Shown here: piece after piece, positions 435 to 20,000 of the stretch | How the letters are laid out: every line of letters starts with the position of its first letter | Position numbering within the stretch: the first letter of the stretch is position 1 | Source: Malassezia furfur | Lineage: Eukaryota | Reading direction: 5' to 3' (one strand) | DNA length: 20,000 nt | NCBI GenBank assembly: GCA_052055015.1 | Contig: JBQJIT010000011.1 | Notes under the pieces: generated by a model | The model's database searches: none | What the model saw: the letters and a program-made list of their open reading frames with translations, nothing else | What the model was told of the DNA's origin: nothing | Program-made: the position numbers and the translations under genes

Positions 435-3400
435 ATGGGCGATTCCGAGGAGCGCGGTCGCCTGGAGCAGATCCGCGCGGCGAAGCGCGCCTTGCGCAAG
501 TTCCAGCAGCGCCGTGAGCAGGAGCGCGGGAAGCGTGCGTCGCGCACGCTGCGCGCGTCGGTGGTCCTGCAAGGCGGTGCGACGCCGACGCTGCTCACGC
601 AGTCGTTCAAGGCGTCCAATACAGCGACGTCGTCCGCGCGCGAGTCAGCGCAGCGCGCGACAGACGCGAGCCGCCGGCGGCATTCGCGCACCCAGTCGAT
701 GCTATCGGACGCAAGCGCAGCCGATGGACGACGCAGCTCGGTGCGCCTGTCGCAGGCGATGCCGCCCCCCAGCGCAGGCGCGGGGGGCAAGCGCCGCAGC
801 GTGCACGTTCGCAACCCGTCCGTGTCGCTCGGCGCCCAGCTGCCGCCGCCTGCGGGCCGGCGGCCCATGAGCATGATCTTCTCGCACCAACCGTCGTCGT
901 CGCTGCAGGGCAGCTCGGCGTCGGCGCAGCGCGACTCGGTGCCGCGCATGTCGATGGCCGATGTGCCCAAGCGGCGGAGCCGGCACTCGCGCCAGCTGAG
1001 CATCTCGACGCGGCGCGAGAGTTTCGAGGTGATGAGCGGGCGCAACCTGGGCGCCGGCACCCGCACGAGTCAACGTGCGTCGCACGCGGGTCGTGCGTCG
1101 GTGCGCTTCTCGGCCCTCGAGGCGGCCTCGGTGCTGTTCCATGCAGGCATGGCACAGAAACCGCTGCCACCCGTGCCGCAGGAGTGGCGCGCGGGCCTCT
1201 GGGACGGCGACACCGACGAGGGCCAGGACCGCGAGAGCGCCCTCGAGAAGCTCGAAGGGCGCGGCGCGGCGCGCGATACGACGCCGCCCGCGGCGCGGCG
1301 TGCGCGCCCGCCATCGTGGCTGCAGCCCAAGCCCGAGGCGACGCACAGCTCGCCGCCCGCCCTCGGCTCGCCGTGGGACGCCGCGCCGCCGAGCGCGCCG
1401 GCCGCGCCCGTCGAAGAGAGCCTCGACACGCTTGTCGAGGAGGACGAGGACGAAAGCGGCTCACGCACGCATGCCCAGGCGGCCGCGCGCACCGAGCCGT
1501 GCGGCACGCCCGCCGATGCCGTCGAGGCGCTCGTTGCCGAGGCCAAACGCCGGCAGCATGGCGCGGCCGACACTGTGGCCGAGGCAGACACGTCGACGGA
1601 GTCGAGTCGTGCGTTGCGCCCGCTGCGTCTGAGCAGCCTGAATGCGAGCGGCACACCGCTGCTCGGCACGACGCAGCGCGCGAGTGCTGCGATGCCGAAA
1701 GCCGTGCGCCGTGCGTCCAACATTTACTACAAGCCGGCGCAAGCGGCGCAGGCGCAGGCGGCGCAAGCGACGCAGGCGGACGCCGCCGCGCCGCGCGGCC
1801 ACCATGCGCCGAGCACACGCAGTGCCCAGTCCTCCAACACCTCGTGGCCCCTCACGGACGCGGCGGGCAGTGCGCTGTTTAGCCCCCGCTCGGCGGCGTC
1901 CGACTCGCCCGGTGCGACGAGCATCGAGTCGAGCGACCACACACCGAAGCGCGCGGCGCGGCCGGCGCCGCCCGCGCCCGAGCCCGTGCTGGCGCGCGTG
2001 CAGTCAGAGCTGCACGCGGAGCGCGAGCGCCACCTGCACGAGATCACCGAGCTGCAGCGCGAGGTCGAAGAGGTGCGGCATGTCATGGGCGCGCAGCTGG
2101 CTGGCGTCGCCGGTGCGCGCGACGCGGCCGAGGCGCGCGTCGCGGCGCTCGAGGCGGACACGGCGCAGCTGCGTGAGCGGCTCGAAGAGGCCGAGGGCGT
2201 GCGCGACATGTATGCGGACGATGTCGAAGGCTGGCGGCGGCGGTGCAGCGACCTGGAGCAGACGATCCGCACGCAGCAGCTGCGCTTCAAGCAGGAGCAG
2301 TCGTGGCGCAATGCTGCGATGAAGCGGATGCAGGCGCTGTCGAACCGGCTCAAGACGCACGAGGGCTCGTTTGACTCGACGTCCAGCTCGCAGCTCGGCC
2401 CGCTGAGCAGCGTGTCGAGTGTGTCGTCCACGAGCCTCGCGGACGGCACCTTTGACGGCGTGCCCGAGCTTCCGACGCTGCCCGAGATGCCCTCGGAAGA
2501 GGAGCTTGGCGACTGGTCGACACACGTCGCGCGGCAGCTCTCCAAGCAGGCGCCCGAGGCCGCCGCGCCGCCACAGGACCTCGCGCCCGAGACGGTGCAC
2601 CTGCTCGCGGACATGCGGCAGCAGATCATGGGCCTCTATGCGGAGCTCAAGCTCGAGCAGTCGAACCACGAGCTGACGCGCTCGCAGCTGCGCGACGCGC
2701 AGCAGGCGCATGCCGTGCAGCCCGACGCGTTGGCAGGGGTGGCTTCGCCCGTCACCACCTTTACGCCCGCAGACGTGTCGCAGACGCCCAGCGCTGCATC
2801 GAGCGCCGCGCCGAGCGTCTCGACGCCGCGCTCGCGTGCCTCGTCCGCGTCGCGGCGCCGGCGCCAGGCGTTCCTGCGCGACGACGGCACGAGTGGCTCA
2901 CAGAGCACCACACGCTCGTACACCTCGTCGATCGATCCCGCGGAGACCACCGCCGACGTGCTCTTTGCGTCGCACGGCAAGAACCCGTCGCTCGTGGGCC
3001 TCGGCCTCGGGCCGCCCCCGCGCCGCACCGCGGCCGCCGAGCGCTGGGACTCGGTCGATGCGACGCCGCGTCCAGACGCCGTGCGCGCGACGCGCGACGA
3101 GCCGGCATGGCCCGAGACGAGCCAGGACACTTCGTGGCTCGATGACGACTCGCCGTGGGCCAGTCAGGAGGAGGCTGCGCAGCCGCACGAGACGCCGCGC
3201 CCGTCGACGGTGCAGGCCGACGCCGCAGCGGCCGCCGCAGCGTCCATTCCGGAGCCGACGCCCGCCGCACCCGCCGCGCCCGCCGAGACGGCACCTACGC
3301 GGCTCGTCTCGGCGCCCCTGCCGCCGCGCACTGCGCCCGAGCCGGGCAAGCGCGCGTCGTCCGCCGCAGGGCCACGGGTCCCGAGTGTGTCGGCGGCGCA

Positions 3401-4787: not shown

Positions 4788-4802
4788 CGTAGCCTAACGA
4801 AT

Positions 4803-4843
4803 GCACAGACCACGTGGAGGCGCCCGCCCCGCGACCAGATAAG
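4803..4843 (+). promoter_or_regulatory. Conserved upstream element of peptidase copy 1 (GCACAGACCACGTGGAGG with E-box, plus GATAAG)
   Basis: The 18-mer at 4803-4820 is identical to 6821-6838 and contains palindromic CCACGTGG. GATAAG at 4838-4843. ATG at 4863. Confidence 0.55.
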
Positions 4844-4862
4844 GCGTTTGCTGCGCGTGACC

Positions 4863-6806
4863 ATGGCCGCAAAGCTCGAGCTGCCCGACCGCGCACCGAC
4901 GAGCGCGCCGCCGCCGCGCCGCCGCGCCGCCGCACGCTACCTGATCGCCGGAGTGGCTCTGGCGTTGTATGTATATGCAACGTGTGTGCGCACGCACGCG
5001 TCTGCAACGTGGCTCGCGCAGGTGCTGGACGACGTCGAGGGCCCACACGGCGTGTGTCCGCAGGTGGCCGAGTACGACCCGACCGATGCGCTCCAGGGGC
5101 GCGACCTTGTGCGCCCGTCGGTACGTGCGTCCGTGGAGCGCCTCAGCCACGCCGTCCAGATCGATACGTCTGTCAGCGACGGCTGGAAGGACCCAGACGA
5201 GGACCCCGCGCCGTGGAAGATCTTTACGCCCTACGCAGAGTGGTTTGAGCGCAGCTTCCCCACCGTGCACGCACGCGACAGCCCCGTGCGCCGCGAGAAG
5301 ATCCACCAGCACGGCCTGCTCTACACGTGGCCCGGCTCGGACCCATCGCTGAAGCCGCTGCTGATCACCGCACACCAGGACGTGGTGCCGGTGGACGGCT
5401 CGACGCTCGACGACTGGGTCTACCCACCGTTCTCGGGTCACGTTGACCTCGAGAACCAGACCGTATGGGGCCGTGGCGCGATCGACTGCAAGAACTGGCT
5501 CCATGGCTCTATGGCGGCAGTCGAGTCGCTGCTGCTCAGCGGCTGGACGCCGCGCCGCACGGTGCTCTTTGCGTACGGGTTTGACGAGGAGTCGAGCGGG
5601 CAGCAGGGCGCACAGCACATTGGCCGCTACCTGCAGGAGCGGTACGGCGACGACAGCATCGCAATGCTGGTCGACGAGGGCACACCCGTGTACTCGGTGT
5701 CGGATCCCGAGTCGTTTGGCGCACCCATTGCGGCACCGGCCGTCACCGAAAAGGGCATGCTTAACGTCGAGATGGAAGTGCGCAGCAAGGGCGGGCACTC
5801 GTCCATGCCCCCGCCGCACACCTCGATCGGTCTCCTGTCGCGCATCCTGACAATGCTCGAAGACCATCCGTTCCCGGACAAGATCGAGGAGAAGTCCAAG
5901 GCGCACATCCAGTTTCTCCAGTGCATGCGCGACCACCCTGAGATGCCTGACACGCTGCGGCACGCGCTGTACAAGCTCGAGTACGCCGAGCGCGCGCTCG
6001 ACAACCGCTTCGCGGCGGGTGCCACGGGCGTTCTGCCGCTGACCGAACGTGTGTTTTTGCATCTCGCGCCGCGTGCACTGAAGCACAGCCGTGTGGACAA
6101 GGCGCGTCAGGGCGTGCTCGACGTGCTCGACTACAACATGCTGTCCCTGCTCAAGACGACCCAGGCGGAAGATGTGATCCACGGCGGCGTCAAGGTGAAC
6201 GCGCTGCCGGAGTCGGCTACGGCGCTCATTAACCACCGCATCGCGACCTACTCGCGCATTGCTGACGTCGAGCACCGCTACAAGCGTCTGCTCACGCCGC
6301 TGGCCGAAGAGCTAGGCCTGTCGCTGACCGCGTTCGGCGAGGAACTCGTGCCGCACACCAACGCGTCCATCGGCTCACTCGTCATCGGTCGTGGCTCGTG
6401 GATTGTTGATACGCGCGACCCGTCGCCGTTCGAGGGGCCGGATGCGGGGCCCTGGCGCCTGCTCTCGAGCGTCATCCGCCAGACGTGGCACCTCGACGAG
6501 CCGCGTCACGAGCTTGGCAAGAGCATGTCCGAGAAGCCGCGCGTCTCGAAACAACACCAGCATCCCGTGCGTGTGACGCCCAACGTAATGTTCGCCATCA
6601 CCGACACGCACTGGTACAAGGCGCTGACCAACCAGGTGTTCCGCTTCGCCTCCTTGTCTGTGCACCCCGACCTGACGGGGATGTCGATGTTCCACACGAT
6701 GCACACGGTCAACGAGCACGTCTCGATCGATGCCATTGTCAAGGCCGTCGACTTTTACACGAACCTCCTCATCGCCGCCGACCACGAGACGATCGAGCAT
6801 TGGTAG
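4863..6806 (+). CDS. CPS1: M20 family Gly-Xaa carboxypeptidase (carboxypeptidase S-like), copy 1, 647 aa
   Basis: Short N-terminal tail plus TM helix (YLIAGVALALYVYA). M20 metal/catalytic motifs AHQDVVP, WGRGAIDCK, GFDEE, VDEG, GGHSSMPP, GGVKVNALPE, HTVNEH. Confidence 0.93.
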   Translation: MAAKLELPDRAPTSAPPPRRRAAARYLIAGVALALYVYATCVRTHASATWLAQVLDDVEGPHGVCPQVAEYDPTDALQGRDLVRPSVRASVERLSHAVQIDTSVSDGWKDPDEDPAPWKIFTPYAEWFERSFPTVHARDSPVRREKIHQHGLLYTWPGSDPSLKPLLITAHQDVVPVDGSTLDDWVYPPFSGHVDLENQTVWGRGAIDCKNWLHGSMAAVESLLLSGWTPRRTVLFAYGFDEESSGQQGAQHIGRYLQERYGDDSIAMLVDEGTPVYSVSDPESFGAPIAAPAVTEKGMLNVEMEVRSKGGHSSMPPPHTSIGLLSRILTMLEDHPFPDKIEEKSKAHIQFLQCMRDHPEMPDTLRHALYKLEYAERALDNRFAAGATGVLPLTERVFLHLAPRALKHSRVDKARQGVLDVLDYNMLSLLKTTQAEDVIHGGVKVNALPESATALINHRIATYSRIADVEHRYKRLLTPLAEELGLSLTAFGEELVPHTNASIGSLVIGRGSWIVDTRDPSPFEGPDAGPWRLLSSVIRQTWHLDEPRHELGKSMSEKPRVSKQHQHPVRVTPNVMFAITDTHWYKALTNQVFRFASLSVHPDLTGMSMFHTMHTVNEHVSIDAIVKAVDFYTNLLIAADHETIEHW

Positions 6807-6820
6807 AGTCCATAGCCGTC

Positions 6821-6853
6821 GCACAGACCACGTGGAGGAAGACGCGCGATAAC
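6821..6853 (+). promoter_or_regulatory. Conserved upstream element of peptidase copy 2 (GCACAGACCACGTGGAGG, plus GATAAC)
   Basis: Exact 18-bp match to 4803-4820. GATAA at 6848-6852. ATG at 6888. Confidence 0.55.
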
Positions 6854-6887
6854 GCCGGGCGCTAATCTTAATCCTGTTCTCGCCGTC

Positions 6888-8828
6888 ATGTCCGACAAAG
6901 AGCAACTCCCGCTCGCTGTAAGCTCTCGGCCTCGCGCGCGCCCCGCCCGTAGGTGGCTTCGCTTGTTAGGGCTCGTGTTCCTCGCTACGCAGGTCTGGCT
7001 GCTCTACTTGCGTGCGACGCCGTCGTCTACGTGGCTTCCCCACGTTCTTGAACACACCGACGACGCCCGCGGTGTGTGCCCGCAAGTTACCGAGTACGAC
7101 CCAACGGACGCGCTCAACGGACGCAAGATCCAGCAGCCCACTGTACGCAAGTCCGTGGAGCGGCTCCGTGATGCGGTCCGCGTCGACACCACCGTCGGCG
7201 ATACATGGGCGGATCCGAGCGATGACCCCGAAACCTGGCGCGCGTTTAGCGAGTTTGCCAAGGTATTGGAAAAAAGCTTCCCGGCTATCCATGATAATGC
7301 GAGTCTACTGCAGCGCGAGATTGTGCATGAGCACGGCCTGCTCTACACCTGGCCGGGCTCGGACCCCAGCCTGAAGCCGCTGCTCCTGATGGCCCACCAG
7401 GACGTGGTGCCCGTCGACCCAACCACACGGAGCGAGTGGCAATTTCCGCCCTTCTCGGGGTACATTGACACCGAGAACCAGACGGTGTGGGGCCGCGGCT
7501 CCGTGGACTGCAAACTGTGGCTCCTTGGCACCATGTCGGCGGTCGAGTCGCTGCTCGAGAGCGGTTGGGAGCCGCGCCGCACGATCCTGCTTGCGTACGG
7601 CTTTGACGAAGAGGCAAGTGGGACTCAGGGTGCGCAGCAGATCGCCAAGTACCTGCACAAACGCTACGGAGATGACAGCGTCTCCATGATCGTCGACGAG
7701 GGTATGCCAGTGTACTCGGCGTACGACGCTGAAGCGTTTGGCGCCCCGATCGCGGCTCCCGCCGTGGACGAGAAGGGTGCTTTGGATGTGCGTGTTGAGG
7801 TGCGAAGCAAGGGCGGTCACTCGTCGATGCCTCCGCCGCACACCTCGATTGGGTTGCTGTCCAAGTTGGTGACGGTCCTCGAAGAGCATCCATTCCCGGA
7901 CAAGCTGGAGGAGCGCTCCAAGGCCCAGATTCGTTTCTTCCAATGCATGCGTGACCACCCGCTAGTGCCCAAGCCGATGCGCCTGGCCCTGGAGGAGCTC
8001 GAGTATGCCGAGCGCGCTCTCGAAAGCGACTTTGTGCGCACGCATGGGTCCAAGCTGCCTCTCCACGAACGTCTTTTTGTCCAACTTGCGCCGGCTTCGT
8101 TGCTGCAAAGCCGCCTGAAGCGCGCACGCCAACACGTTCTGGATGTCCTGAGCCCTGCGGTGCGTTTGATGCTCAAGACAACGCAGGCGGCCGATATTGT
8201 GCAGGGCGGTGTCAAGGTGAATGCCCTGCCCGAGTCGGCCTATGCGATCATGAACCATCGCATCGCAACCTACTCGAGCGTTAACGAGACCAAGGAACGG
8301 TATAAAAAGCTACTTACGCCCGTTGCCGAGGAGATGGGGCTGTCGATGACTGCCTTTGGCGAAGAGCTTTTGCCCTTGACCAACACGTCGGTCGGGTCAC
8401 TGGTAATCAGCAACGGGCCGTCGTACCTCGAAGTGGTCGATGTGTCGCCATTCGAGGGCAAGGAGGCCGGTGCGTTCCGCCTCTTGGCGAGCGTCATTCG
8501 TCAGACGTGGCATCTGGATGAGCCGCGCAGGACAATGGACGACGACTTGCACCGTGCGAGCAGCACCAAGCAAAAGCACGGCGAATCCATCCGCGTCACG
8601 CCCACGACCATGTTTGCCAATACGGACACGCACTGGTACAAGATGCTGACGCGCAACATTTTCCGTTTTGGCCCGGCTACGCTGCACCGTGATCTCACGG
8701 GGCTGACGATGCTGCACACGATCCACACCGTGAACGAACACGTCTCGTTTGACGCAATCGCGAAGGCGGTCGAGTTCTACACGAACCTGATTGTCGCTGT
8801 GGACTATGAGGATGTAAACAAGATGTAG
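6888..8828 (+). CDS. CPS1: M20 family Gly-Xaa carboxypeptidase, copy 2, 646 aa
   Basis: Colinear paralogue of copy 1. TM helix LLGLVFLATQVWLLYL. Motifs AHQDVVP, GRGSVDCK, FDEE, DEG, GGHSS, NTDT, HTVNEH intact. Confidence 0.93.
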   Translation: MSDKEQLPLAVSSRPRARPARRWLRLLGLVFLATQVWLLYLRATPSSTWLPHVLEHTDDARGVCPQVTEYDPTDALNGRKIQQPTVRKSVERLRDAVRVDTTVGDTWADPSDDPETWRAFSEFAKVLEKSFPAIHDNASLLQREIVHEHGLLYTWPGSDPSLKPLLLMAHQDVVPVDPTTRSEWQFPPFSGYIDTENQTVWGRGSVDCKLWLLGTMSAVESLLESGWEPRRTILLAYGFDEEASGTQGAQQIAKYLHKRYGDDSVSMIVDEGMPVYSAYDAEAFGAPIAAPAVDEKGALDVRVEVRSKGGHSSMPPPHTSIGLLSKLVTVLEEHPFPDKLEERSKAQIRFFQCMRDHPLVPKPMRLALEELEYAERALESDFVRTHGSKLPLHERLFVQLAPASLLQSRLKRARQHVLDVLSPAVRLMLKTTQAADIVQGGVKVNALPESAYAIMNHRIATYSSVNETKERYKKLLTPVAEEMGLSMTAFGEELLPLTNTSVGSLVISNGPSYLEVVDVSPFEGKEAGAFRLLASVIRQTWHLDEPRRTMDDDLHRASSTKQKHGESIRVTPTTMFANTDTHWYKMLTRNIFRFGPATLHRDLTGLTMLHTIHTVNEHVSFDAIAKAVEFYTNLIVAVDYEDVNKM

Positions 8829-9034
8829 ACATAGAGAGCTACATTTTCCTGCATCTCTCCATGCCGTGCCATTGAGATTGCACATTGCGCCTGGCTCCAC
8901 CGGCATTGGGCGCTTTTAATTCGCGCACCCAAGATTTTATCGAAGCAATATTGGGGTGTAAGATTATGCACGGACCAGACGAAAATAGTCATTCATGATA
9001 AGATGCCGCGAACGCACCTTGCAAAGTGCTCATC

Positions 9035-10975
9035 ATGTCGATAAAGGGCGAACTGCCGCTCGCAGTACACCCAAAGTATCGCACGCGTAGGACTAGGAAA
9101 TGGTCTACGATTCTTGCCGTAGTCATCGGAACGTTCCAGTTATGGATGCTCTGGACACGTTGGATCAACTCGTCTTTGTGGCTTCCAAACCTTTTGGAAA
9201 CAGCTAGTGAGACGCATTCGGTCTGCCCTCAAGTTCCAGAGTATGACCCCAAGAATGCACTTGGTGGCCGCAAAATCGAGCTACCGACCATCCGCGAGGC
9301 CGTTGATCGGTTGAGTCAGGCGGTACAGTTGGACACGGCGACGCATGACGACTGGGTGGATCCTAATGATGACCCCGAGCCGTGGCGCAAGTTTAATGCA
9401 TTTGCTAACTTCCTTGAAAAGACATTTCTAGCCGTCCATGCGCATGAAAGTCCTTTGAAACGCGAGTTCGTCCACCAGCATGGCCTACTTTACATTTGGC
9501 CCGGTTCGGATGCGTCACTGAAGCCGCTGGTTCTCACGGCGCACCAGGACGTGGTGCCCATTGACCCGACCACGCTTCACGATTGGATTTTCCCGCCCTT
9601 CTCTGGATACATTGACCTCGAGAACCAGACAGTCTGGGGCCGCGGCTCATACGACTGTAAAGTACGCGTGCTGGGTATCTTGTCCGCGGCCGAGTCGCTG
9701 CTTCGGAGCGACTGGTCTCCGCGCCGGACCATTATCTTTGCGTATGGATTTGATGAAGAGATTGGTGGCAAGCAGGGTGCGCAGTATATCGGGAAGCGCC
9801 TCGAAGAGCTCTACGGTGTCAACGGGATTGCGATGCTGGTCGACGAAGGTATGCCAGTCTATTCGGCCCATGATGTCGAGTCGTTCGGGGCGCCGATTGC
9901 GGCTCCCGCGGTGAGTGAGAAGGGTGCACTGAATGTGCGCATTGAGGTGCGCAGCAAGGGCGGTCACTCGTCGATGCCACCGGCGCATACGTCCATCAGC
10001 CTTTTGTCCAAGCTTGTGACCATCTTGGAAGACCATCCTTTCCCTGACAAGATCGAGGAAAAATCCAAGGCACAGATTCGGTTCTTGCAGTGCCTGCGTG
10101 ACCATCCGCATGTCTCGGACAGGATGCGCCATGCTTTGATGGAGCTGGAATATGCAGAGCGCTCGCTGGATACCGAATTCCTACGCCTGTACGCCGCCGA
10201 ACTTCCGGTCTACGAGCGACTCTATCTGCGCCTCGCACCGGCTTCTGTAGTACAGAGCCGGCTGGGACGTGCCCGTAAACGTGTGCTGGATCTGCTCAGC
10301 GTCAACACGCGCCTAGTGCTGAAGACGACGCAGGCCGTCGATGTCATCGAAGGCGGTGTTAAGGTGAATGCACTTCCCGAGTCGGCACACGCCATCATCA
10401 ACCACCGCATTGCACCCTACTCGAGCGTGGAGGAGACCAAGGTCCGCTACAAAAAACTGCTTGCGCCTGTCGCCGAGGAGCTGGGCCTTTCGCTCACGGC
10501 GTTTGACGAGGAGCTGATTCCGCACACCAATGCGTCCGTGGGTTCACTGGCACTGAGCAGTGAATCCTGGGAGAGGGAGGTGGCTCACATCTCCGCGTTC
10601 GAGGGAGAGAATGCGGGTCCCTTCCGTCTGTTGTCCAGCGTGATTCGCCAGACATGGCATCTCGACGACCCGCGGCACATTCTTCACGAGGGGGCCGAGA
10701 CCGTGACTACGCCGAAGAAGGCGTCAATGGAGGCCTTGCGTGTGACGCCCAGCATCATGTTTGCCAACACAGATACGCTATGGTACAAGAACCTGACCCT
10801 AAACGTATTCCGCTTCGCTCCTGCGACATTGCACCGCGACCTGACGGGCATCCCAACACTGCACACCACCCATACGGTGAACGAGCACATTCCGATTGAC
10901 TCGATCGTGAAGGCGAACGAGTTCTACGTGAACTTGGTCGTGGCTGCCGACTTCGAGGACCTCGAAAAGGTATAG
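9035..10975 (+). CDS. CPS1: M20 family Gly-Xaa carboxypeptidase, copy 3, 646 aa
   Basis: ATG 9035 (MSIKGELPL) aligns with MSDKEQLPL of copy 2. Motifs AHQDVVP, GRGSYDCK, FDEE, DEG, GGHSS, HTVNEH intact. Confidence 0.92.
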   Translation: MSIKGELPLAVHPKYRTRRTRKWSTILAVVIGTFQLWMLWTRWINSSLWLPNLLETASETHSVCPQVPEYDPKNALGGRKIELPTIREAVDRLSQAVQLDTATHDDWVDPNDDPEPWRKFNAFANFLEKTFLAVHAHESPLKREFVHQHGLLYIWPGSDASLKPLVLTAHQDVVPIDPTTLHDWIFPPFSGYIDLENQTVWGRGSYDCKVRVLGILSAAESLLRSDWSPRRTIIFAYGFDEEIGGKQGAQYIGKRLEELYGVNGIAMLVDEGMPVYSAHDVESFGAPIAAPAVSEKGALNVRIEVRSKGGHSSMPPAHTSISLLSKLVTILEDHPFPDKIEEKSKAQIRFLQCLRDHPHVSDRMRHALMELEYAERSLDTEFLRLYAAELPVYERLYLRLAPASVVQSRLGRARKRVLDLLSVNTRLVLKTTQAVDVIEGGVKVNALPESAHAIINHRIAPYSSVEETKVRYKKLLAPVAEELGLSLTAFDEELIPHTNASVGSLALSSESWEREVAHISAFEGENAGPFRLLSSVIRQTWHLDDPRHILHEGAETVTTPKKASMEALRVTPSIMFANTDTLWYKNLTLNVFRFAPATLHRDLTGIPTLHTTHTVNEHIPIDSIVKANEFYVNLVVAADFEDLEKV

Positions 10976-10990
10976 ATCATAAATACATAA

Positions 10991-13552
10991 CTAGTCACGG
11001 CTCGACGACGACTTCCCCCAGGACTGAATGCCCGGCATGCCCTTCCCTGGGCCACGCGGGGGGTTTTCGTGCCGGACATATTCTGTGCCTGGTTCGTCGT
11101 CAGAACTATCATCACAGTCCGTCCGGCGGACCGTGCGGGCTCGCTTGGACTGCGCCGGGCGGACCAAATCACTCGACTTCTTCTTGAGTCCGCGCAAGGT
11201 AGAGAAGGCGGCGGGCTTGCTAGCCTTGGGCGCCGTTGGCGTAGCGCCGGGCGCGCCAGACGGCGCACTCGCTAGTGGTTCGCCCTCGCTCTTAGATGAC
11301 ACGCGCCGCCGCGCGGTGAAGCTCGTTCGCTTCTTGGGCGCGCGCTGCTCCATGGCGTCCTCCTCCTCCTCGGCATGCTTCTCCGCGGACTCGTCCTGGT
11401 CCACCCTTGGGAGCCGCGAGACGCGCGACACGCGACTACGCTGCGACCCTGTCCGAACGGGCAGCTCAAACTCCTCAATGAAGCTCGATCCGGTCGTGTT
11501 GGAATTGATCGTCTGAGCCGATGCGGTATGTCGCATCGCTGGCGCGCGGGGTAGGGTATCGGACGGCCGCGGGGGCTCATCAGGCGGCGTCGATGCGGAC
11601 GGAACGCCGCGAGGCGGCGATGGCGGTTGTTTCTCAACCACCGGCCCGGAGCGGCGTGATGCACGGCTCGAGCTGCGTGTGCTGCTCGTGCGGGAGGGCG
11701 GTTCGTCGTCGGCCTCCTCGCGCTCCACTTGGCGTTTGGTCTCGGCACTGTGCTGCGACACGCCGAGCGAGCACATCACAGCGGGCGCCGTGGCGGTTGG
11801 CGCATCGAGTGTCTCGAGCTCGTGTGGCTCAAAGAGTCGCGGCACAAAATACACGCGACACGGAATCATCAAAATGATAATCACCGGGAAGCCAATTGCC
11901 GCAATCGTCTGTGAAATGGCAATGGTCATGCCAAAGAAGAGCCATTGGATCCCGACAAACAGCGCGATGGCACGCCGGCGCAGCTGCATTAGCGGCGGAC
12001 GCGCCGACTTGGCCAGGGGAACAGCGCTGCGGTCCTGCAAGAGCGACAATGTACGCAGGATAATCGGGTTGGACTCGATCGATGCCCAGCCGACCACGAG
12101 GAAGACGCCGGCAAAGACGGCGCGCGGCATGGTGCCAAGTGCGACAAGGATCGGGCGCGTCATGGAGCCAATGGTGAGGAGCCCAATCACGAAATGGCTC
12201 AGCCGCTGCTCAACGACACGGGCGATACGGACATGCGCAAAGTGCGTAATGTACAGGAGCGAGGCGTTTCCCGTAACCGAAACACGCCGCACGCCGCGCT
12301 GCTCCTCGTCGACGATGGGTTCCTGTGTGTACACAGCGAGAGAGTCGGTGTGGTAGGGTGCCTGTGGCACCAGTCCGTTGGGCACCGGCAATCCCAAGAT
12401 GCCTGATACAAACGTGGTGCAGCCCAACAGGAAAAAGTCCCAATGGAAACCGGCCGGCTTGGTGATAGGAAATTTGCGCGCCTGTGCCATCACACTCGAC
12501 ACGTTGTGGTCAAAGTAGAACAGGAGCGTGAGCAAAAATCCGAGCGGCGCGCCGACAAACACCCACTGCACTTCGGCGTTCCAAAAATCCACCACCCAGT
12601 CGCGGTCGAGCGTCGGAAAAAAGCTGCGGGTGATGGGCAGGCGCGACACGGCAACATCCTTGAGCGTATGGCCGGGGAAGTTGCTGAAGCCGGTCCAGAA
12701 CAAACACCCAGCGACAAACGCGAGCTGCCCCACGAGGCGGCGCAGCTGGAATGGCAGGTAGGTCGACGCACCCACCATCGTTGCAAAGTAAACCGTGACG
12801 CTAAACAGCACGGCGATCGTCACCGCGAGCCAGCCCGTGGCATTCTCGAGCGGGGCTGGCCCAAACTCACGGTTGAGCAGTTCGATGCCCTTTTGGACAT
12901 AGATCACGCCGACGTACAGGCCGAACGTGTCCGAGATCATGTCAGTCACGAACCGCGTGTAGTCGCATAGGTTAAAGATGGCCGCGAGGAAGTGGAAGCC
13001 GGAGCCCCAGATCAGCATCCAGCATTGCAGGCGCAGGTACTCTTGCCGGTTCAGGTCGTAGTGGTTGTGGGCAATGTCGTACACGGTGTAGTTCATCAGG
13101 TTCGTGAGACCCGTGACGCCCACAAAGGTGAGCGGCTGCACGCTGAACAGCGAGAAGACGATTGCCGCGAGCGCAGACGCGAGGATCACTTCGTTCACGC
13201 CGTAGCTGCCGTCCGTGCGGTCGTACATATCGAGCACATACGCGATGGCTGGCATCAGGTTGATGAAGAAGATCTGCACCACGCTCGCCGCAACGATCGG
13301 TAAGCTGTTTCCGCGCAGTGCATCGGTCCAGTCCGACAGGTAGTAAGGCAGCCGCCGGCGCACGTCCGCCCACATGCCCCGGAACGGGCGGAGCTCGTAC
13401 CAGGCGCTCCGCGCTTCCCACGGCACACTGGTGTCGTCGTGTACGTGCGCGGTATCTTTCCGCATCTGCGGCATGCGCAATGGCCGCAGTCCGCCGGCCC
13501 GGGAGGCGCGCCCTTGGCTTGGGGCGCGCCGCTCCCCCAGTGCGGCGTACAT
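10991..13552 (-). CDS. BOR1: Bor1-type borate exporter / SLC4 (HCO3- transporter family), ~853 aa with long disordered C-terminal tail
   Basis: Family motifs RRRLPYYLSDW, FFINLMPAIAY, QPLTFVGVTG, LFYFDHNVSS, GFHWDFFLLG, NGLVPQAP, VVEQR, AAIGFP and multiple TM helices. Start uncertain: ATG 13552 chosen because more upstream starts overlap RPC17; MPQMRK is an alternative. Confidence 0.92.
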   Translation of the reverse strand: MYAALGERRAPSQGRASRAGGLRPLRMPQMRKDTAHVHDDTSVPWEARSAWYELRPFRGMWADVRRRLPYYLSDWTDALRGNSLPIVAASVVQIFFINLMPAIAYVLDMYDRTDGSYGVNEVILASALAAIVFSLFSVQPLTFVGVTGLTNLMNYTVYDIAHNHYDLNRQEYLRLQCWMLIWGSGFHFLAAIFNLCDYTRFVTDMISDTFGLYVGVIYVQKGIELLNREFGPAPLENATGWLAVTIAVLFSVTVYFATMVGASTYLPFQLRRLVGQLAFVAGCLFWTGFSNFPGHTLKDVAVSRLPITRSFFPTLDRDWVVDFWNAEVQWVFVGAPLGFLLTLLFYFDHNVSSVMAQARKFPITKPAGFHWDFFLLGCTTFVSGILGLPVPNGLVPQAPYHTDSLAVYTQEPIVDEEQRGVRRVSVTGNASLLYITHFAHVRIARVVEQRLSHFVIGLLTIGSMTRPILVALGTMPRAVFAGVFLVVGWASIESNPIILRTLSLLQDRSAVPLAKSARPPLMQLRRRAIALFVGIQWLFFGMTIAISQTIAAIGFPVIIILMIPCRVYFVPRLFEPHELETLDAPTATAPAVMCSLGVSQHSAETKRQVEREEADDEPPSRTSSTRSSSRASRRSGPVVEKQPPSPPRGVPSASTPPDEPPRPSDTLPRAPAMRHTASAQTINSNTTGSSFIEEFELPVRTGSQRSRVSRVSRLPRVDQDESAEKHAEEEEDAMEQRAPKKRTSFTARRRVSSKSEGEPLASAPSGAPGATPTAPKASKPAAFSTLRGLKKKSSDLVRPAQSKRARTVRRTDCDDSSDDEPGTEYVRHENPPRGPGKGMPGIQSWGKSSSSRD

Positions 13553-13604
13553 ACGCGGTGGTAAATACGGAGCGCGTCGCGTACGTAAGCCGATTTCTTC
13601 GACG

Positions 13605-14266
13605 ATGCGCATTGTCAAGACGCGGGCGGCGCTCTTGTCGGATTACGAGGTGCTCCAGCTGCTGCGCGACACCGAGACGCGGCAGCGCGAGGCTGCGCGG
13701 CCGGACAACGAGGATGCAGAGGCGTGGATGAAGGCCGTGCCCCCCAACGTCCGCACCATCCAGTTTGAGGTACGTGCATGCACTAATGCAGACGATTGCG
13801 TCGCTGTCGCAGGCGCATCGGCCGTGTGCGCGGCAAGAGGCGCACCACATCCACGGCTTTCTCAAGGCGGTTGAGGAGAAGGGGTATGCGCCGTCCGACG
13901 CAAAGATCCTGCAGGGCACGCCGGGCCTGACGAAGGCCGAACGGCTGCAGCTGGTCAATCATGCGCCGATGAGCGTCGTAGAACTGCACACGGTACGTGT
14001 GTTCACTGACACAGCTTGTGGAAGAGCTTGGGCAACGCATGTCCGACGAACAGATCGACGACATCTTGCAATGTGTCATGACGCATCTTCCTGCACCGCA
14101 AGCGCAGGTCGAGCCGCTCGAGGTCGAGGCGCAGCCGGTGCTCGACGAGGCGCCGGACACGTACGCCGCGGACGAGATGGCCGTGGACGAGGACGCATTT
14201 CCCGAAGAACACTTTGAACATGAGGGGCCATCTACGGCTGTGGCTGCGGACGATGACGACGACTAA
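13605..14266 (+). CDS. RPC17: RNA polymerase III subunit Rpc17/RPC9 (Rpb4 family), 205 aa; exons 13605-13769, 13792-13992, 14015-14266
   Basis: N-terminal MRIVKTRAALLSDYEVLQLL. The spliced product gives NVRTIQFE|TIASL and LTKAERLQLVNHAPMSVVELHT|LVEELGQRMSDEQIDDIL, the HRDC-like Rpc17 signature. Two 22-nt GT-AG introns join three separate ORF-track frames. Confidence 0.88.
13770..13791 (+). other. 22-nt spliceosomal intron (RPC17 intron 1)
   Basis: GTACGT-GCATGCA-CTAAT-GCAG. Removal restores the conserved reading frame. Confidence 0.85.
13993..14014 (+). other. 22-nt spliceosomal intron (RPC17 intron 2)
   Basis: GTACGT-GTGTTCA-CTGAC-ACAG. Removal joins ELHT to LVEE. Confidence 0.87.
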
Positions 14267-14267
14267 T

Positions 14268-14909
14268 CTATCTCCAATCACCGCCCTTGAACCCGCGCCC
14301 GCGGCTCATGACCGGCAGGATACCAAGCGCACGCGCGCGGCGGATGGCCTTGCCAATATACCGCTGGCTCTTGCGCGTAAGGCCGGTCACGTTGCGGGGC
14401 AGAATCTTGCCCATTTCCGAGACGTACTCCGAGAGCAGTGTCCCGTTTTTGTAGGTGTCATCGGCAAGCGACGGCTTTGCCGGGTTCAGTCCGAGGATAT
14501 GAATAGGGTCTTGCTTCATCGCTTCGCGCTTCGACGGGCCGAGCAGCGGCAGGGCGCGACGGCGCGGCTGGAAGGTCATGTTGCTCGGGTCGAGCGTGTA
14601 CGGGTCGTAGTATTGGCCGTTCTGGAACGTCTTCGTGGGACCGACTTGCTCCTGGCGACGTGCACCGGCCATGGACGGGCGCTGGGCCTGGCCACGAGGC
14701 GAGCGCGGCGTCTGCTTCGGCTGCTCTTTGGGCTGGCTCTCGAGGAAGCTCGCGAGCTGGTCGAGCTTCGCCTGTGCGGAGTCGTCTGCCTGTGGCTTTT
14801 GGGGTCCCTCGTCACTGCTCTTCAGGCGCAATTGCATCAGCGGGGCACGGGCGAGCGGCGCGCGCGCCATGCGCACGCCGGCGACGGCGCTCCAGGTGCT
14901 TCGAAGCAT
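14268..14909 (-). CDS. RSM18: Mitochondrial small ribosomal subunit protein bS18m, 213 aa
   Basis: Arg-rich presequence-like N-terminus (MLRSTWSAVAGVRMARAPLAR). C-terminal S18 domain YKNGTLLSEYVSEMGKILPRNVTGLTRKSQRYIGKAIRRARALGILP. Confidence 0.9.
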   Translation of the reverse strand: MLRSTWSAVAGVRMARAPLARAPLMQLRLKSSDEGPQKPQADDSAQAKLDQLASFLESQPKEQPKQTPRSPRGQAQRPSMAGARRQEQVGPTKTFQNGQYYDPYTLDPSNMTFQPRRRALPLLGPSKREAMKQDPIHILGLNPAKPSLADDTYKNGTLLSEYVSEMGKILPRNVTGLTRKSQRYIGKAIRRARALGILPVMSRGRGFKGGDWR

Positions 14910-14932
14910 GAGCAAAGAGGAGCACCGACGAT

Positions 14933-14942
14933 ATCACGTGAC
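14933..14942. promoter_or_regulatory. ATCACGTGAC (Cbf1/CDEI-type bHLH site) in the 49-bp divergent RSM18/THI6 promoter
   Basis: Matches RTCACGTG on both strands and lies between the two ATGs (14909 on -, 14959 on +). Confidence 0.45.
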
Positions 14943-14958
14943 ACAACCGTGCGCGACG

Positions 14959-16695
14959 ATGCCCGAGTACGGCCTATACCTGGTGACCGGGCGCGAGCTG
15001 CTGCCTGAGGGCGTGTCGTACCTCTCGAGCCTCGAGGAGACGCTGCGTGACGGGCATGTGACGATCGTGCAGATCCGGTACGTCGCGCCGCACTGACACA
15101 GCGAAAAACATGCCGACTACGACGAGTTTCTCCAGATCGCGAAGGATTCGCTCGAAATCTGCGACAAGTATGGCGCGACGATGGTCATCAACGACAGCGT
15201 GGACGTCGCAGCTGCACTTCCCGAGCGTGTCGGGCTGCACATCGGACAGGACGACACTAAACTAGCCGAGGCACGCCAGCGCCTGGGCTCCGGCCGTCTC
15301 ATTGGCATTTCGGTGCACGACGCGGCGCAGGCGCGCGCGGCGCTCGACAGCGACGCGGACTATGCAGGGGTCGGGCCGTGCTGGGGCACTCAGTCCAAGG
15401 CCGGTATCACCAAGGACGATGTCATGATGATCGACGGCGCGCGCGAGACAGTTGCGGCGCTCGCACGTACGCAGCAGGACGCACCGCCCGGCGCGCGGCT
15501 GCGCATGCCGTGTGTGCTGATCGGCGGCATCAACCTGCGTACGGTGCTGCGCACGATGATGGGCGCTTCGTCGCCGCAGAATGCGCCCGACGGATTCGCA
15601 GTGATCTCGGCGATCGTCGCACGCCGCGACCCAGGGCGGGCGGCCGCCGAACTGTACGCGGCGCTCGGTGCATTCCGCGCGGTGCAGGCAGAGCGGGCGT
15701 CGCGCGTTGCGATGTCCTCGCTGACGAACCACGTGCTGCCGAGCCCGTTTGCGTCGCCATCCGAGCTGGTCACGGCGGTGGCGTCCCTGCTGAAGGCACA
15801 CCACACCGTGTACGACCCCACGACGCATACGGAGGACGACACGCACGTCACCATCCCCCGCACGCTGGTGCAGACGATCACGTCGCACGTGTCGTCATAC
15901 TTTAGCGCGAACGTTGCGCTCGCCTTCTCGGCGAGTCCAATCATGAGCCACGAGGCCGAAGAGGCCGAGGCACTGAGCCAGGCGACGCGTGCGCTCGTGC
16001 TCAACATCGGCACGATCAACAGCGAGGCACGTCAAGGCATGGCGGTCGCTGGGCCGGCCGCGAATGCGCGCGGAACGCCCGTGTTGCTGGACCCCGTAGG
16101 CGTCGGTGCGACGCCGTTCCGCTACGAGGTCGCCAACGACATTCTGAATCACACGCAGGTGACGCTCATCAAGGGCAATGCTGCCGAGATCGGCAAACTT
16201 GCGGGGTCGACCGAGGCGCAGGCGCAGGGCGTCGACAGCGTCGGGGCGCTGTCGAGCCCGGCGCACCTCGCGGCGCAGCTTGCGATGCAGGAGGGCGCGC
16301 TGGTGCTCCTTACCGGCGAGGTCGACTACCTAACGAACGGCGAGGTGGTGATCGAGTCGCACTGCGGTACACCGCTGCTTGGCCGTGTGACCGCTACGGG
16401 GTGCTCGCTTGGTGTGATGGTCGCTGCAGGCCTCACGAGTGCGATGCATGTCTATGGGGTGCAGCTCGGCTCCGCGGACGTGCAGCGCATCACGCCGCCG
16501 CGCACACACCGCGAGCTGCTCGTTGGTGCGTTGCTCGGCGTGTTTGCGTTCACGATCGCGGCGGAGCGCGCGGTCAAGGTGCCTGGCGTACGTGGGCCCG
16601 GTACATTCCTGCCTGCGCTGCTTGACGAGATTGCCTTGCTCACGCCCGCGACGCTGCAGACGTACGAGGACCGCGTCAAGGTGTATACAGTGTAG
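14959..16695 (+). CDS. THI6: Bifunctional thiamine-phosphate synthase / hydroxyethylthiazole kinase, 570 aa; exons 14959-15077, 15102-16695
   Basis: ThiE domain: YGLYLVT, VQIR|EK, VINDSVDVA, GLHIGQDD, GVGPCWGTQSK, IGGIN, AVISAI. ThiM domain: ASPIM, LVLNIGT, LLDPVGVGATPFR, IKGNAAEI, TGEVD, TATGCSLG, GPGTFLPALLD. Confidence 0.93.
15078..15101 (+). other. 24-nt spliceosomal intron (THI6), in frame, containing a TGA stop
   Basis: GTACGT-CGCGCCGCA-CTGAC-ACAG. Removal restores the conserved Q-x-R-E-K motif of thiamine-phosphate synthases and removes TGA 15094-15096. Confidence 0.88.
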
Positions 16696-16786
16696 ATAGA
16701 GAGCCTAGTGATTTGCTACCGAGGACGCCTGGCAGGTGGAGGGCAGCGCGTCGCGGCGCGTCGCGTCCACGTGCCAACACCTTCGC

Positions 16787-17411
16787 ATGGACACCGACTA
16801 CTGGAGTGTCGAGGCGATCCTCGCCGAGTCGCAGCGGCTCCCATGCACGTTTAGCGTAGATGTGCCCGGGCTGGGCTACCTGGAGGAGTCTGGCGAGATT
16901 GATGTACGTGTGAGGCTCACACAGATGCACAAGCACACGCGCGTAGAGCTCGTGTATTGGATGGCGCACATGCTCGCCGTATAGTAGGTGCTGCGTGCTC
17001 ACGCAGCGAGATTGTCACGATCCAGATGCCGCGGGCACTTGGCTCGCGCGTGCGGGCGGCGCTGGATGCGAGTCCCACGTCCGTGCAGCTGCACAACCTC
17101 CTGCCGCATTGGTACGCCTTGGCCGTGCGCCTCGCGCGACTGCTCGAGTCGGACGCGCTGTACGCGATGCTGTCCAAGGTACGTGGCGCGCTTACCAGCA
17201 GACCTATGTGGGCCGCATCGCGCGCATCTACGAGCTGGCCGTGCTGCTCTCGCGCACGCCGGCCGACGCCAGCGCACGATCGACGGACGCGGCGCTGACG
17301 CACGACATGCAGGCGTTTATGCAGGGCCTCGACGACAGCGAGCAGGTGCTGCTTACGGCGGGGCGCGCGGCGACGCGCACCATGCAAGAGTTTCTCGCGG
17401 GGAGAGACTAA
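16787..17411 (+). CDS. PSF3: GINS complex subunit Psf3, 185 aa; exons 16787-16903, 16925-16983, 17007-17178, 17202-17411
   Basis: DYWSVEAILAESQRLPCTFSVDVPGLGYLE, RVELVYWMAHMLA, PRALGSRVRAALDASPTSVQL...HWY, TYVGRIARI, FMQGLDDSEQVL match the Psf3 pattern. Three short introns give a 558-nt CDS. Confidence 0.88.
16904..16924 (+). other. 21-nt intron (PSF3 intron 1), in frame and stop-free
   Basis: GTACGT-GTGAGG-CTCAC-ACAG, same architecture as the other introns. Not forced by the reading frame (would encode VRVRLTQ). Confidence 0.72.
16984..17006 (+). other. 23-nt intron (PSF3 intron 2)
   Basis: GTAGGT-GCTGCGTG-CTCAC-GCAG. Removal converts GTA TA|G (stop) to GTA TA|C GAG (V-Y-E) and continues into the Psf3 frame. 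Confidence 0.82.
17179..17201 (+). other. 23-nt intron (PSF3 intron 3) with tandem CAGCAG acceptor
   Basis: GTACGT-GGCGCG-CTTAC-CAGCAG. An acceptor at 17201 gives LSK|TYVGR; an acceptor at 17198 (20-nt intron) adds one Gln. Confidence 0.78.
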
Positions 17412-17418
17412 TTGTACT

Positions 17419-20000
17419 TTACATAGACTCCAAATCGGTCACGAGGCTGTGCAGCTGCGCGAGGCGGTCCTTGCGCGCCTGCACGGGCGACGGCGTGCGG
17501 TGCAGATCGTCGCGCGGCGAACCCGTGCGCGGCGAGTGTGGCACACCGAGGTGCGATGGCTGCGGCGTGGAGGTGCGTGAGAGCGACGTGGAGCGCGTCA
17601 TGGTCTCGCTCAGCTCCGGCGTGGTGACGCGCTGCGAGAGCGACTCGAGCCAGGCGGCGTGGTCGGGCAGGTCGGTGACAAAGTGCGGCTGCGTGTCGTC
17701 CTTGGCACCCGAGGCGCTCCACGACGTGCCCATCAGCCCGTGGTTTGACAGCGAGGAGAGCAGCGAGGTGCTCGTATGCTCGTCGGCCGAGTCGTCGCGC
17801 AGGTCGCGCACCTCGCGCGCATAGTCCTCGCGGCGCAGCAGGTAGGGGCGCAGGAGCTGCTCGTCGATCTTGGCGAGGTGCCCCTCGCGCATGTACGACT
17901 TGAGCACGGCCGGCTGCACGATGAACAGGTTGCCGAGCTGGCGCAGCATCTCGAAGCGGTCCGTCACGACGGGCACCTCGAAGCGCCCGCACACGTCCTG
18001 GTACATGGCAAGGTCCTTGGTGAGCATCAGGCCGCCCGTGGCGCTGACCGTGTACTTTTTGAGGTGCTCGAGCAGCTGCGCGTGGAAGCCGACGCCGATC
18101 TCGAGGAGCAGCGACTCGCGCGTGCGCTCGGGCAGGTAGGCGAACGCCGCGGCCTGCACCGCGTCGAGCACGTCGACGATCGCGAGGCACGGGTCGGTGT
18201 TGAGGCGCGCAAACATCACGTCGTCGTCCTTCGGCGCGTAGTCCGTCTTCTTCTGCGTCGCGAGGCGCGCCGCGAGGAACGCGAGCAGGTTGTCGGTGAA
18301 CTTTTGCAGCAGCGCACCGCACTTGCCCTCGACACGCAGCATGTTGTGGTTGTTGTAGATGAGCGTCTCGCGCCGGATCGTGACGCTCGGCGCAGTGAGC
18401 GGCAGCACGGCCTTTTGCACATAGTGCTGCCACAGCGCCACGAGCTGCTCAACGCGCTGCACAAGCTGCAGCGGGAGCACGTCGGGCGCGGCGTTCGCAC
18501 GCGCGTCGTACGAAAACAGCTGCACGGTCGCCGTCTCGAGCGCGGCCTCCACATACGCCTTGAGGTAGGCGTCGGTGCCGACGCGCAGCAGCGCAAACGT
18601 GTTCTTCGGCACCTCGCTCGCCTGGCCGAGGTCGACGCACCGGCCGAGCGCCTCGGCGTGCCAACGGAGCAGGCGCTCGGCCAGCTCGAGCGAGAGTTCG
18701 CCGCGTGCGTCCGGCGCATCCGACTCGTCGGCCGGCGTCTCCTCCTCGACGGGCGCCGTCGGCTGCGTGCCGCGCGCGCGGTCAACGAGCTTGCGGAACG
18801 ACGACACGTTGGCGTTCGACGGCTCCTTGCCGTACCCGGCGCTGTCGGAGAGCGTCGCAAACGCGACGCTGCTCCCGAACGAGCCCGCCTGGCCGCCGGT
18901 GAACTGGTCGCGCACGCGGCTGAAGATGGTCGCATTCGCGCGGCTCGCCTTGATCGTGTTGCGGTGCCACGTGAAGAAGCGGCCGAGCGCACCGGCGTAC
19001 AGACCGCTCAGCACGCGGCACTCGCGGTCGATGTACTTGACCTGGTCGAGGTACGGGAAAAAGAGCTCCTCGACCGCCTGGTCGAGCATCGCGCCGAGCG
19101 GACTGCCGCCGGCCGCCGCAAGCTGCGCCGCAGAGTACGCAGGGACGCCGAGTGCGCCGCTTGCCTCGGCACGCACGAGGCCGTCGGCGTCGGTGCCTGC
19201 GAGCGGGAAGAGGCTGTCGAGCCCGCCCGTCGCACCAAACGGCCCGCCCGACGTCGTGATGCCGGCGCTGCGCAGGTCGATCGTCTTGAGGTCGTCGACG
19301 AGCTGTAGTGCACTGCTGCGTGTGACGTGCAGCATGCGCAGGAACGCGAGGCCGGCGGTGTCCGCGGTCGGGTCGTGCCGCGCGGTGATTGGTGCGTGCT
19401 CCTGGTCGATGGCGTGCGCGCGCTGCATAATCGCCTCGATAAACGCCTGGACGCTCTGTGCAAAGACGCGCTGCAGGAACGTCTGCATGACCAGCAGCGG
19501 GCTCGGGAACACGGCGGCGATGATCTGCGCCTCGAGCTCGACCGTGCGCCGGATCTCGACAAAGAGCGCATCGAGCGCGGGCTCCTTGCGCGGTGGCAGC
19601 GCATTCGGGTCGGCCACTGCCTCCCACATGGGCGATGACCCAATTTGCTCGGCCTGCACGACCCGGTCCTTGGAGATGAAAAAATCGTGCTGGTTCACAT
19701 AGATCTGGATGCAGCTCACGCCCCCGTTGAAGCTCTGAAGCACCTGCGCAATGTGGAACATCATCTTGGGGTCCGAGCGCCGGTAGTACTTGTCGAAGAG
19801 CTTGAGCATGTCGCGCTCGAACTGCTCGCAGTACGCGTCGACCGCCTCGCGAGTCGCAGCGCTCCCGGGGATGTCGACCTCGCGCGCAATCACAGCGAGG
19901 CGCCGTGCGATCATCGCGGCCTTGAGACGGCCCTCACGCCCGCCGTCCTTGCGCAGCTTGTCGAGGCGCTTGGTGTCGCCGCGCGCAAACATGTAGTAGT
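17419..20000 (-). CDS. SEC10: Exocyst complex component Sec10 (5'-partial; frame is open to the window edge)
   Basis: Helical-rod protein with FNGGVSCIQIYVNQHDFF, IIAAVFP...FLQRVFAQS, LATQKKTDYAPKDDD, EIGVGFHAQLLEHLKKYTVSATGGLMLTKDL, FEMLRQLGNLFIVQP, typical of Sec10. Codons upstream of ATG 19992 read TAC TAC with no stop, so the true start lies outside the window. Confidence 0.92.
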   Translation of the reverse strand, partial: YYMFARGDTKRLDKLRKDGGREGRLKAAMIARRLAVIAREVDIPGSAATREAVDAYCEQFERDMLKLFDKYYRRSDPKMMFHIAQVLQSFNGGVSCIQIYVNQHDFFISKDRVVQAEQIGSSPMWEAVADPNALPPRKEPALDALFVEIRRTVELEAQIIAAVFPSPLLVMQTFLQRVFAQSVQAFIEAIMQRAHAIDQEHAPITARHDPTADTAGLAFLRMLHVTRSSALQLVDDLKTIDLRSAGITTSGGPFGATGGLDSLFPLAGTDADGLVRAEASGALGVPAYSAAQLAAAGGSPLGAMLDQAVEELFFPYLDQVKYIDRECRVLSGLYAGALGRFFTWHRNTIKASRANATIFSRVRDQFTGGQAGSFGSSVAFATLSDSAGYGKEPSNANVSSFRKLVDRARGTQPTAPVEEETPADESDAPDARGELSLELAERLLRWHAEALGRCVDLGQASEVPKNTFALLRVGTDAYLKAYVEAALETATVQLFSYDARANAAPDVLPLQLVQRVEQLVALWQHYVQKAVLPLTAPSVTIRRETLIYNNHNMLRVEGKCGALLQKFTDNLLAFLAARLATQKKTDYAPKDDDVMFARLNTDPCLAIVDVLDAVQAAAFAYLPERTRESLLLEIGVGFHAQLLEHLKKYTVSATGGLMLTKDLAMYQDVCGRFEVPVVTDRFEMLRQLGNLFIVQPAVLKSYMREGHLAKIDEQLLRPYLLRREDYAREVRDLRDDSADEHTSTSLLSSLSNHGLMGTSWSASGAKDDTQPHFVTDLPDHAAWLESLSQRVTTPELSETMTRSTSLSRTSTPQPSHLGVPHSPRTGSPRDDLHRTPSPVQARKDRLAQLHSLVTDLESM

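Follow-up and report, generated by a model that had tools for sequence, protein, structure and literature searches.

How little sequence can a spliceosomal intron of Malassezia furfur consist of? The question is raised by three genes, RPC17, THI6 and PSF3, on contig JBQJIT010000011.1 of M. furfur (assembly GCA_052055015.1), from which a stretch of 20,000 nucleotides (nt), referred to here as the window, was analyzed. The genes lie between positions 13605 and 17411 and are interrupted by six segments of 21 to 24 nt, which had been predicted to be real spliceosomal introns. This was supported by the match of the spliced products to deposited proteins, by the continuity of conserved motifs across the junctions, and by the presence or absence of introns at the same positions in a Malassezia-like metagenome contig, L010. 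The six segments are very probably ordinary U2-type GT-AG spliceosomal introns of housekeeping genes and fall within the very-short-intron regime of the genus. From the DNA sequence and its comparison we infer that the segments are excised in the RNA, which nucleotide forms the branch and which factors are involved.

Position and signals of the introns

All six segments were found on the plus strand at the predicted coordinates and with the predicted lengths (22, 22, 24, 21, 23, and 23 nt). RPC17 contains two introns of 22 nt, both in phase 0. Intron 1 (13770-13791) consists of the donor GTACGT, a spacer, the branch motif CTAAT, the dinucleotide GC and the terminal AG. Intron 2 (13993-14014) has the donor GTACGT and the branch motif CTGAC followed by AC and AG. 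The single intron of THI6 (15078-15101) is 24 nt long, is in phase 2 and includes an in-frame stop. Its donor is GTACGT and its branch motif CTGAC, again followed by AC and AG. PSF3 contains three introns. Intron 1 (16904-16924; 21 nt, phase 0) has GTACGT, CTCAC, AC, and AG. Intron 2 (16984-17006; 23 nt, phase 2) has GTAGGT, CTCAC, GC, and AG. Intron 3 (17179-17201; 23 nt, phase 0) has GTACGT, CTTAC, and a tandem CAG-CAG acceptor.

The donor hexamer was GTACGT in five introns and GTAGGT in the remaining one, and CAG stood at the 3' end of all six. A CTNAY pentamer was present in every intron, as CTAAT (once), CTGAC (twice), CTCAC (twice), or CTTAC (once). The spacer between donor hexamer and pentamer was 6-9 nt long and G+C-rich in all six, and no pyrimidine tract was found in any of them. 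The predicted build of GTA(C/G)GT, a 6-9 nt spacer and CTNAY, with no pyrimidine tract, was therefore present in 6/6. The gap between the pentamer and the terminal AG was 2 nt in five introns (AC in three, GC in two) and 4 nt (CAGC) in PSF3 intron 3. For RPC17 intron 2 the scripted table took the overlapping pentamer TTCAC; CTGAC begins one base later, was read by eye and gives the 2-nt spacing. The pentamer adenosine, the putative branch point, is 15-18 nt downstream of the 5' G. Its distance from the 3' G is 7 nt in PSF3 intron 3 and 5 nt in all others. Donor, branch motif and CAG together make up 14 of the 21-24 positions of each intron.

Reading frames and chance expectation

In gene order (RPC17 introns 1-2, THI6, PSF3 introns 1-3) the intron lengths modulo 3 were 1, 1, 0, 0, 2, and 2. 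Because of these lengths and the in-frame stop in the 24-nt segment, five of the six segments must be removed to leave an open frame, as had been claimed. Retention of RPC17 intron 1 causes a frameshift and a stop at residue 90, and with PSF3 intron 2 kept the protein ends at residue 59. The stop within the THI6 intron would end THI6 at residue 46 of 571. The sixth segment, PSF3 intron 1, is a multiple of three and stop-free, and the frame survives without its removal.

A strict motif that was written from the six introns themselves, and is thus post hoc, had five matches on the two strands of the window, all five at the claimed introns. Dinucleotide shuffles contained a mean of 0.004 matches and 0 of 500 shuffles reached five. 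A looser, generic short-intron motif had nine matches compared to 3.67 ± 1.9 in shuffles, with 3 of 500 shuffles reaching nine. The three extra matches to the loose motif were a nested alternative within RPC17 intron 2, 1711-1733 on the plus strand and 6251-6225 on the minus strand, and all three are implausible as introns. The match at 1711-1733 (GTGCGT...AAG) was rejected as an intron as it sits within a long open frame. The match at 6251-6225 was rejected because a peptidase gene is encoded on the opposite strand. Further GTACGT sites (5121, 13441, 13581, and 16588 on the plus strand and six on the minus strand) were also rejected, as they lacked the branch and AG build.

The frame breaks could be read as sequencing errors, or the genes as pseudogenes with coincidental GT...AG segments. 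No point was found in favor of this explanation, and its probability is negligible. Database entries from independent M. furfur assemblies, and those from M. brasiliensis, have the same exon structures. One precise motif build is common to all six segments, beyond chance, and intron positions are found again in further species of the genus. U12-type introns were also considered and rejected.

Products of the spliced genes

RPC17, also named RPC9, encodes an RNA polymerase III subunit of the Rpb4 family. It has three exons on the plus strand (13605-13769, 13792-13992, and 14015-14266) and a product of 205 amino acids. The spliced product agreed at 205/205 residues with GLX27_001284 (P0121), an M. 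furfur protein in the databases. The exons were colinear with positions 1-39, 65-91, and 92-114 of Pfam family RNA_pol_Rpb4. Positions 91 and 92 are contiguous across the second junction, which is therefore seamless in the profile. Sixteen aligned proteins were compared at both intron sites. At the intron 1 site 11 were continuous, three carried an in-frame insertion of 7-8 amino acids starting with valine, one had a deletion, and one was truncated at the N-terminus. At the intron 2 site seven were continuous, five read into the intron and then diverged or stopped, three carried an in-frame insertion of 6-9 amino acids, and one had a deletion. Insertions of 6-9 amino acids starting with valine (GTN) stand exactly at intron positions in the public models of relatives and are consistent with read-through.

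The RPC17 protein of one relative (P0131) had an in-frame insertion of six amino acids (V...Q) exactly at the intron 2 site. This would equal an 18-nt intron in that species. A second M. furfur protein, GLX27_001286 (P0122; 196 amino acids), is a form of RPC17 with intron 2 kept and a frameshifted C-terminus, and is placed at a separate locus adjoining the spliced GLX27_001284. Its sequence is exactly that predicted from retention of RPC17 intron 2. It may reflect intron-retaining transcripts or may be an annotation artefact.

THI6 encodes thiamine-phosphate synthase / hydroxyethylthiazole kinase. It has two exons on the plus strand (14959-15077 and 15102-16695) and a product of 570 amino acids. 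The spliced product matched the deposited M. furfur THI6 (P0291, found by cluster look-up) at 569/570 residues. Precomputed Pfam assignments for THI6 were PF02581 and PF02110. Removal of the intron rebuilds the sequence VQIR|EK at the junction. This was unbroken in 10 of the 15 aligned orthologues, which came from Malassezia, Ustilago, Sporisorium, Coprinopsis, and others. The five exceptions were N-terminally truncated or aberrant models.

PSF3 encodes a GINS subunit of 185 amino acids. Its four exons are on the plus strand at 16787-16903, 16925-16983, 17007-17178, and 17202-17411. The spliced product was identical at 184/185 residues to a deposited M. furfur protein named DNA replication protein (P0138), with an equal exon structure. 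Exon 1 matched Pfam family PSF3_N with an E-value of 1.8e-11.

Comparison with a Malassezia-like contig

Contig L010 came from a metagenome scan with the THI6 alignment and was the sole Malassezia-like locus among the 80 kept. The other 79 had an identity of at most 46% and resembled bacterial thiamine genes. L010 has a G+C content of 54.5%, its THI6 is 58% identical to that of the window, and it contains the same gene neighborhood from a more distant Malassezia-like genome.

Window positions 13605-17411 were compared to L010 positions 3384-7294 over RPC17, the mitochondrial ribosomal protein gene mS18, THI6, and PSF3. No intron was present in L010 at either of the RPC17 positions occupied by 22-nt introns in the window, and a single tblastn match covered residues 1-152. 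Similarly, the 24-nt intron of THI6 was absent from L010, where one match spanned residues 3-570. The mS18 gene, which has no intron in the window, had an intron of 34 nt in L010. In PSF3 the 23-nt intron 2 of the window was absent and the L010 sequence was continuous (LAVY|D...). At the positions of PSF3 intron 1 (21 nt in the window) and intron 3 (23 nt in the window) L010 had introns of 25 nt, identically placed. L010 also had three PSF3 introns at sites that are uninterrupted in the window: one of 25 nt after codon 16, one of 26 nt between the sites of window introns 2 and 3, and one of 26 nt in the last exon.

Of the six window introns, four are therefore precisely absent from L010, and two have a 25-nt counterpart at the same position. 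Its five PSF3 introns (25-26 nt) have a common build and their removal gives a complete PSF3 of 186 amino acids. Read by eye, the spacings from motif to AG were 2, 2, 4, 3, and 4 nt, a very small sample. Ten positions were occupied in total across the four genes, of which two were common, four were found only in the window, and four only in L010. With two of ten positions shared, turnover of intron positions within the genus is apparently rapid.

Alternative boundaries in PSF3

Several observations weigh against reading the six segments as ordinary U2-type introns of the very-short-intron regime. The matching deposited proteins, although from several assemblies and pipelines, are predictions and are no independent proof of splicing. 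Branch points were assigned from the motif alone, and half of the pentamers (CTCAC twice and CTTAC once, that is CTYAC) depart from the CTRAY consensus that the other three fit. Six introns of three adjacent genes cannot establish a genome-wide class of 21-24 nt. The 21-nt PSF3 intron 1 is in frame, and its splicing was favored by just 7.2 bits. Finally, the deposited PSF3 of M. yamatoensis reads through the intron 1 site and has an insertion of seven amino acids there.

The bit scores were obtained with a PSF3 profile of 100 of the 150 listed orthologues (P0150-P0289, 160-230 amino acids), from which the closest relatives (P0139-P0149) and proteins of deviating length were excluded. For intron 1 the score was 198.8 bits with the segment spliced and 191.6 bits with it retained. 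The modest difference, the M. yamatoensis insertion and a length divisible by three without a stop all speak for an alternative in which the segment 16904-16924 is kept always or sometimes. PSF3 would then have seven extra residues, and the window would have five introns together with an in-frame look-alike or an alternatively retained intron. However, the segment has a donor, a branch motif, and an anchored AG just as the other five do, the orthologue profile shows no insertion at this site and the deposited M. furfur PSF3 model removes the segment. In addition, the 25-nt intron at the identical position in L010 must be spliced to keep the frame, which supports the 21-nt segment as an intron. 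Constitutive or occasional retention is thus very unlikely, and excision of PSF3 intron 1 is the preferred reading.

The end of PSF3 intron 3 (17196-17201) is a NAGNAG-type CAG-CAG. It contains an AG at 17197-17198 and another at 17200-17201, and both preserve the frame. The proximal AG could be the acceptor, giving a 20-nt intron and one extra glutamine, or both AGs could be used alternatively. The frame is intact with either acceptor, and the proximal AG is the first one downstream if the adenosine of CTTAC is the branch. Against the same 100 orthologues, however, the form spliced at the distal AG (23 nt) scored 198.8 bits compared to 192.8 bits for the proximal form (20 nt), a difference of 6 bits. 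No extra residue is present in the deposited M. furfur, M. brasiliensis, and M. yamatoensis models or in L010, and the proximal AG lies 4 nt from the branch adenosine compared to 5 nt in the other five introns. Use of the proximal AG, alone or in alternation, is therefore unlikely, and the distal AG is preferred as the acceptor. An AG at 4 nt was apparently skipped for one at 7 nt, and from this single case a lower limit of about 5 nt may be suspected.

Predicted splicing mechanism

The donor would be read by U1 and then by U6. SF1/BBP and then U2 would pair with the CTNAY branch motif. For the second step the first AG at a distance of about 5 nt or more downstream of the branch adenosine would be used, without a pyrimidine tract. 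The introns look like ordinary U2-type introns that have been reduced to almost nothing but signal.

Whether this would need a modified spliceosome was considered. Such a modification could be the loss or bypass of U2AF/Mud2, or U1 and U6 small nuclear RNAs (snRNAs) that have co-evolved with the donor. The branch motif just 2 nt from the AG and the absent pyrimidine tract are in favor of it. So is donor position +4, which was C in 5/6 window introns and in 4/5 PSF3 introns of L010 (L010 6652-7241), with the consensus GTRCGT. A C at +4 is unusual among eukaryotes and mismatches the classic 5' end of U1, and snRNAs may have co-evolved with it. Transformed donors are a recognized feature of some lineages, and in Entamoeba the snRNA is described as co-evolved, but the same source, in the part available, reports that most lineages with atypical donors kept U1 unchanged (bioRxiv 10.1101/2022.06.08.495308). 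Moreover, myxozoans, with a median intron length of 22 nt, and Stentor are described in the available text of PMC13644364 as keeping a canonical U2 branch-interacting region and both U2AF1 and U2AF2. A modified spliceosome is therefore not required, and its presence in M. furfur is unlikely. Splicing of the six introns by a conventional U2-type machinery is favored. A search of the 20-kb window against Rfam found 0 families, and so no snRNA gene.

Relation to known short introns

The introns are known in kind twice over, as Malassezia short introns and as Yarrowia-type introns with the branch motif anchored to the AG. Malassezia genes are described in a review, in the portion available, as having 'very short introns' (PMC7426719). 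The curated annotation of M. sympodialis lists 5350 introns for 4493 genes, with a mean length of 30 base pairs (bp) and RNA sequencing support for 99%, according to the accessible text of Zhu et al. 2017 (PMC5389616). For M. restricta the accessible text of two papers gives a median intron length of 30 bp, and minimum intron lengths of 20 and 15 in annotation (PMC6473144, PMC9241646). These species and M. furfur belong to one genus and present the same phenomenon, with the window introns, at 21-24 nt, below the 30 bp mean or median. M. sympodialis is not extremely intron-poor, unlike Trichomonas and Giardia; in the window introns were found in three of about 11 genes.

The branch motif had been claimed to be fused to the 3' splice site, and the 2-nt spacing equals the value given for Yarrowia lipolytica in the available text of Irimia and Roy 2008 (PMC2483917). 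As described there, Y. lipolytica introns also lack a pyrimidine tract, and a fixed gap of 2 nt, usually AC, separates their branch motif from the AG. Position -5 is preferentially C and position -4 a purine, as in the window introns. They differ in their median length of 204 nt and strict ACTAAC motif, whereas the six M. furfur introns are 21-24 nt long with a looser pentamer. As Yarrowia is an ascomycete, the likeness to Malassezia introns would be convergent. The same text describes Trichomonas vaginalis and Giardia lamblia as having a branch motif at a fixed distance from the AG and no pyrimidine tract (PMC2483917). Their spacing is 4 nt (ACAC) in comparison to 2 nt in the window, and both are extremely intron-poor protists. 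A class of introns of about 25 nt also exists in T. vaginalis. A near-invariant branch consensus (WCTRAYN) throughout the introns of a genome would be expected of the anchored type of Yarrowia, Trichomonas, and Giardia; in the sample of six window introns three pentamers were CTRAY and three CTYAC.

Lineages with ultra-short introns include ciliates such as Stentor (15-16 nt), microsporidia, dicyemids, and myxobolid myxozoans (median 22 nt), as listed in the available text of Hadjez et al. 2026 (PMC13644364). They share with the window introns of less than about 30 nt and little or no pyrimidine tract. They differ in their weak 5' and 3' signals and weakly conserved putative branch adenosine, whereas donor, branch motif, and acceptor were all strong in the window. 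The reduced splice signals typical of myxobolids and dicyemids were absent from the six window introns. Within the available text of the same paper, the list of exceptions to the intron floor of about 30 nt (ciliates, microsporidia, and dicyemids) does not name Malassezia (PMC13644364).

The original prediction had left room for novelty. This was largely lost, as public M. furfur protein models, at least one for each intron, already take all six introns into account, and very short introns had been reported from the genus. No published analysis of Malassezia splice signals or branch points and no M. furfur intron length class was found in a literature search largely without subscription journals. 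The word 'intron' was absent from the M. furfur hybridization paper, which mentions RNA sequencing data for strain CBS14141 (PMC9040865). What remains new is the arrangement of the signals, together with the possibility that M. furfur has an intron class of 21-24 nt, shorter than the 25-26 nt of L010 and the approximately 30 nt of two other species; neither seems to have been described. It is conceivable, if less than probable, that M. furfur, and less markedly the genus as a whole, has an unrecognized 'strong-signal, ultra-short' intron system. In such a system intron length would peak genome-wide at about 22-23 nt, close to the physical limit of lariat formation, and Yarrowia-type anchoring would be combined with a +4C donor, maybe with a co-evolved U1 or U6, and with fast turnover of positions. 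If true, fungi other than microsporidia would have no shorter class of introns, and this one would be found in a culturable, transformable yeast apt for the study of minimal-intron mechanics.

Gene models and significance

Gene predictors had been expected to mis-annotate these genes, and several wrong public models bore this out. One correct THI6 model of 570 amino acids was found among M. furfur assemblies, while GLX27_001280 starts at an internal methionine (504 amino acids) and CBS9595_000758 has an aberrant N-terminus. The THI6 models of M. yamatoensis and M. caprae were truncated. RPC17 model CBS9595_000756 was without two segments flanking the introns. PSF3 models that skip coding sequence were found in one M. 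furfur assembly (127 amino acids) and in M. brasiliensis (175 amino acids). For any comparative work on Malassezia genomes the minimum intron length has to be set to about 15-18 nt.

Should the six introns be representative, M. furfur, a yeast that can be cultured and transformed, would join the small number of lineages whose introns are around 22 nt. Its signals are strong and easily mutated, unlike those of ciliates and myxozoans. Minimum distances from the 5' splice site to the branch and from the branch to the AG would then be directly testable.

Other genes of the window

The window is M. furfur nuclear DNA with a G+C content of 65%. Introns were confined to three of its approximately 11 genes, as the neighbors are single intronless frames. 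An open frame of 1,547 amino acids (144-4784, plus strand) had no Pfam match at E ≤ 1e-5. In DNA of 65% G+C it may be a low-complexity protein or a partly chance frame. On the minus strand a HCO3-/borate-type transporter (10994-13642), mS18 (14271-14933), and the exocyst gene Sec10 (17422-19998) were each encoded by a single open frame with no intron, that of Sec10 running past the end of the window. Three tandem paralogous open frames were present on the plus strand at 4788-6803, 6816-8825, and 9002-10972, with 672, 670, and 657 amino acids from stop to stop. All three matched Peptidase_M20 and M20_dimer and had no sign of introns. Together they are a local triplication of a metallopeptidase gene.

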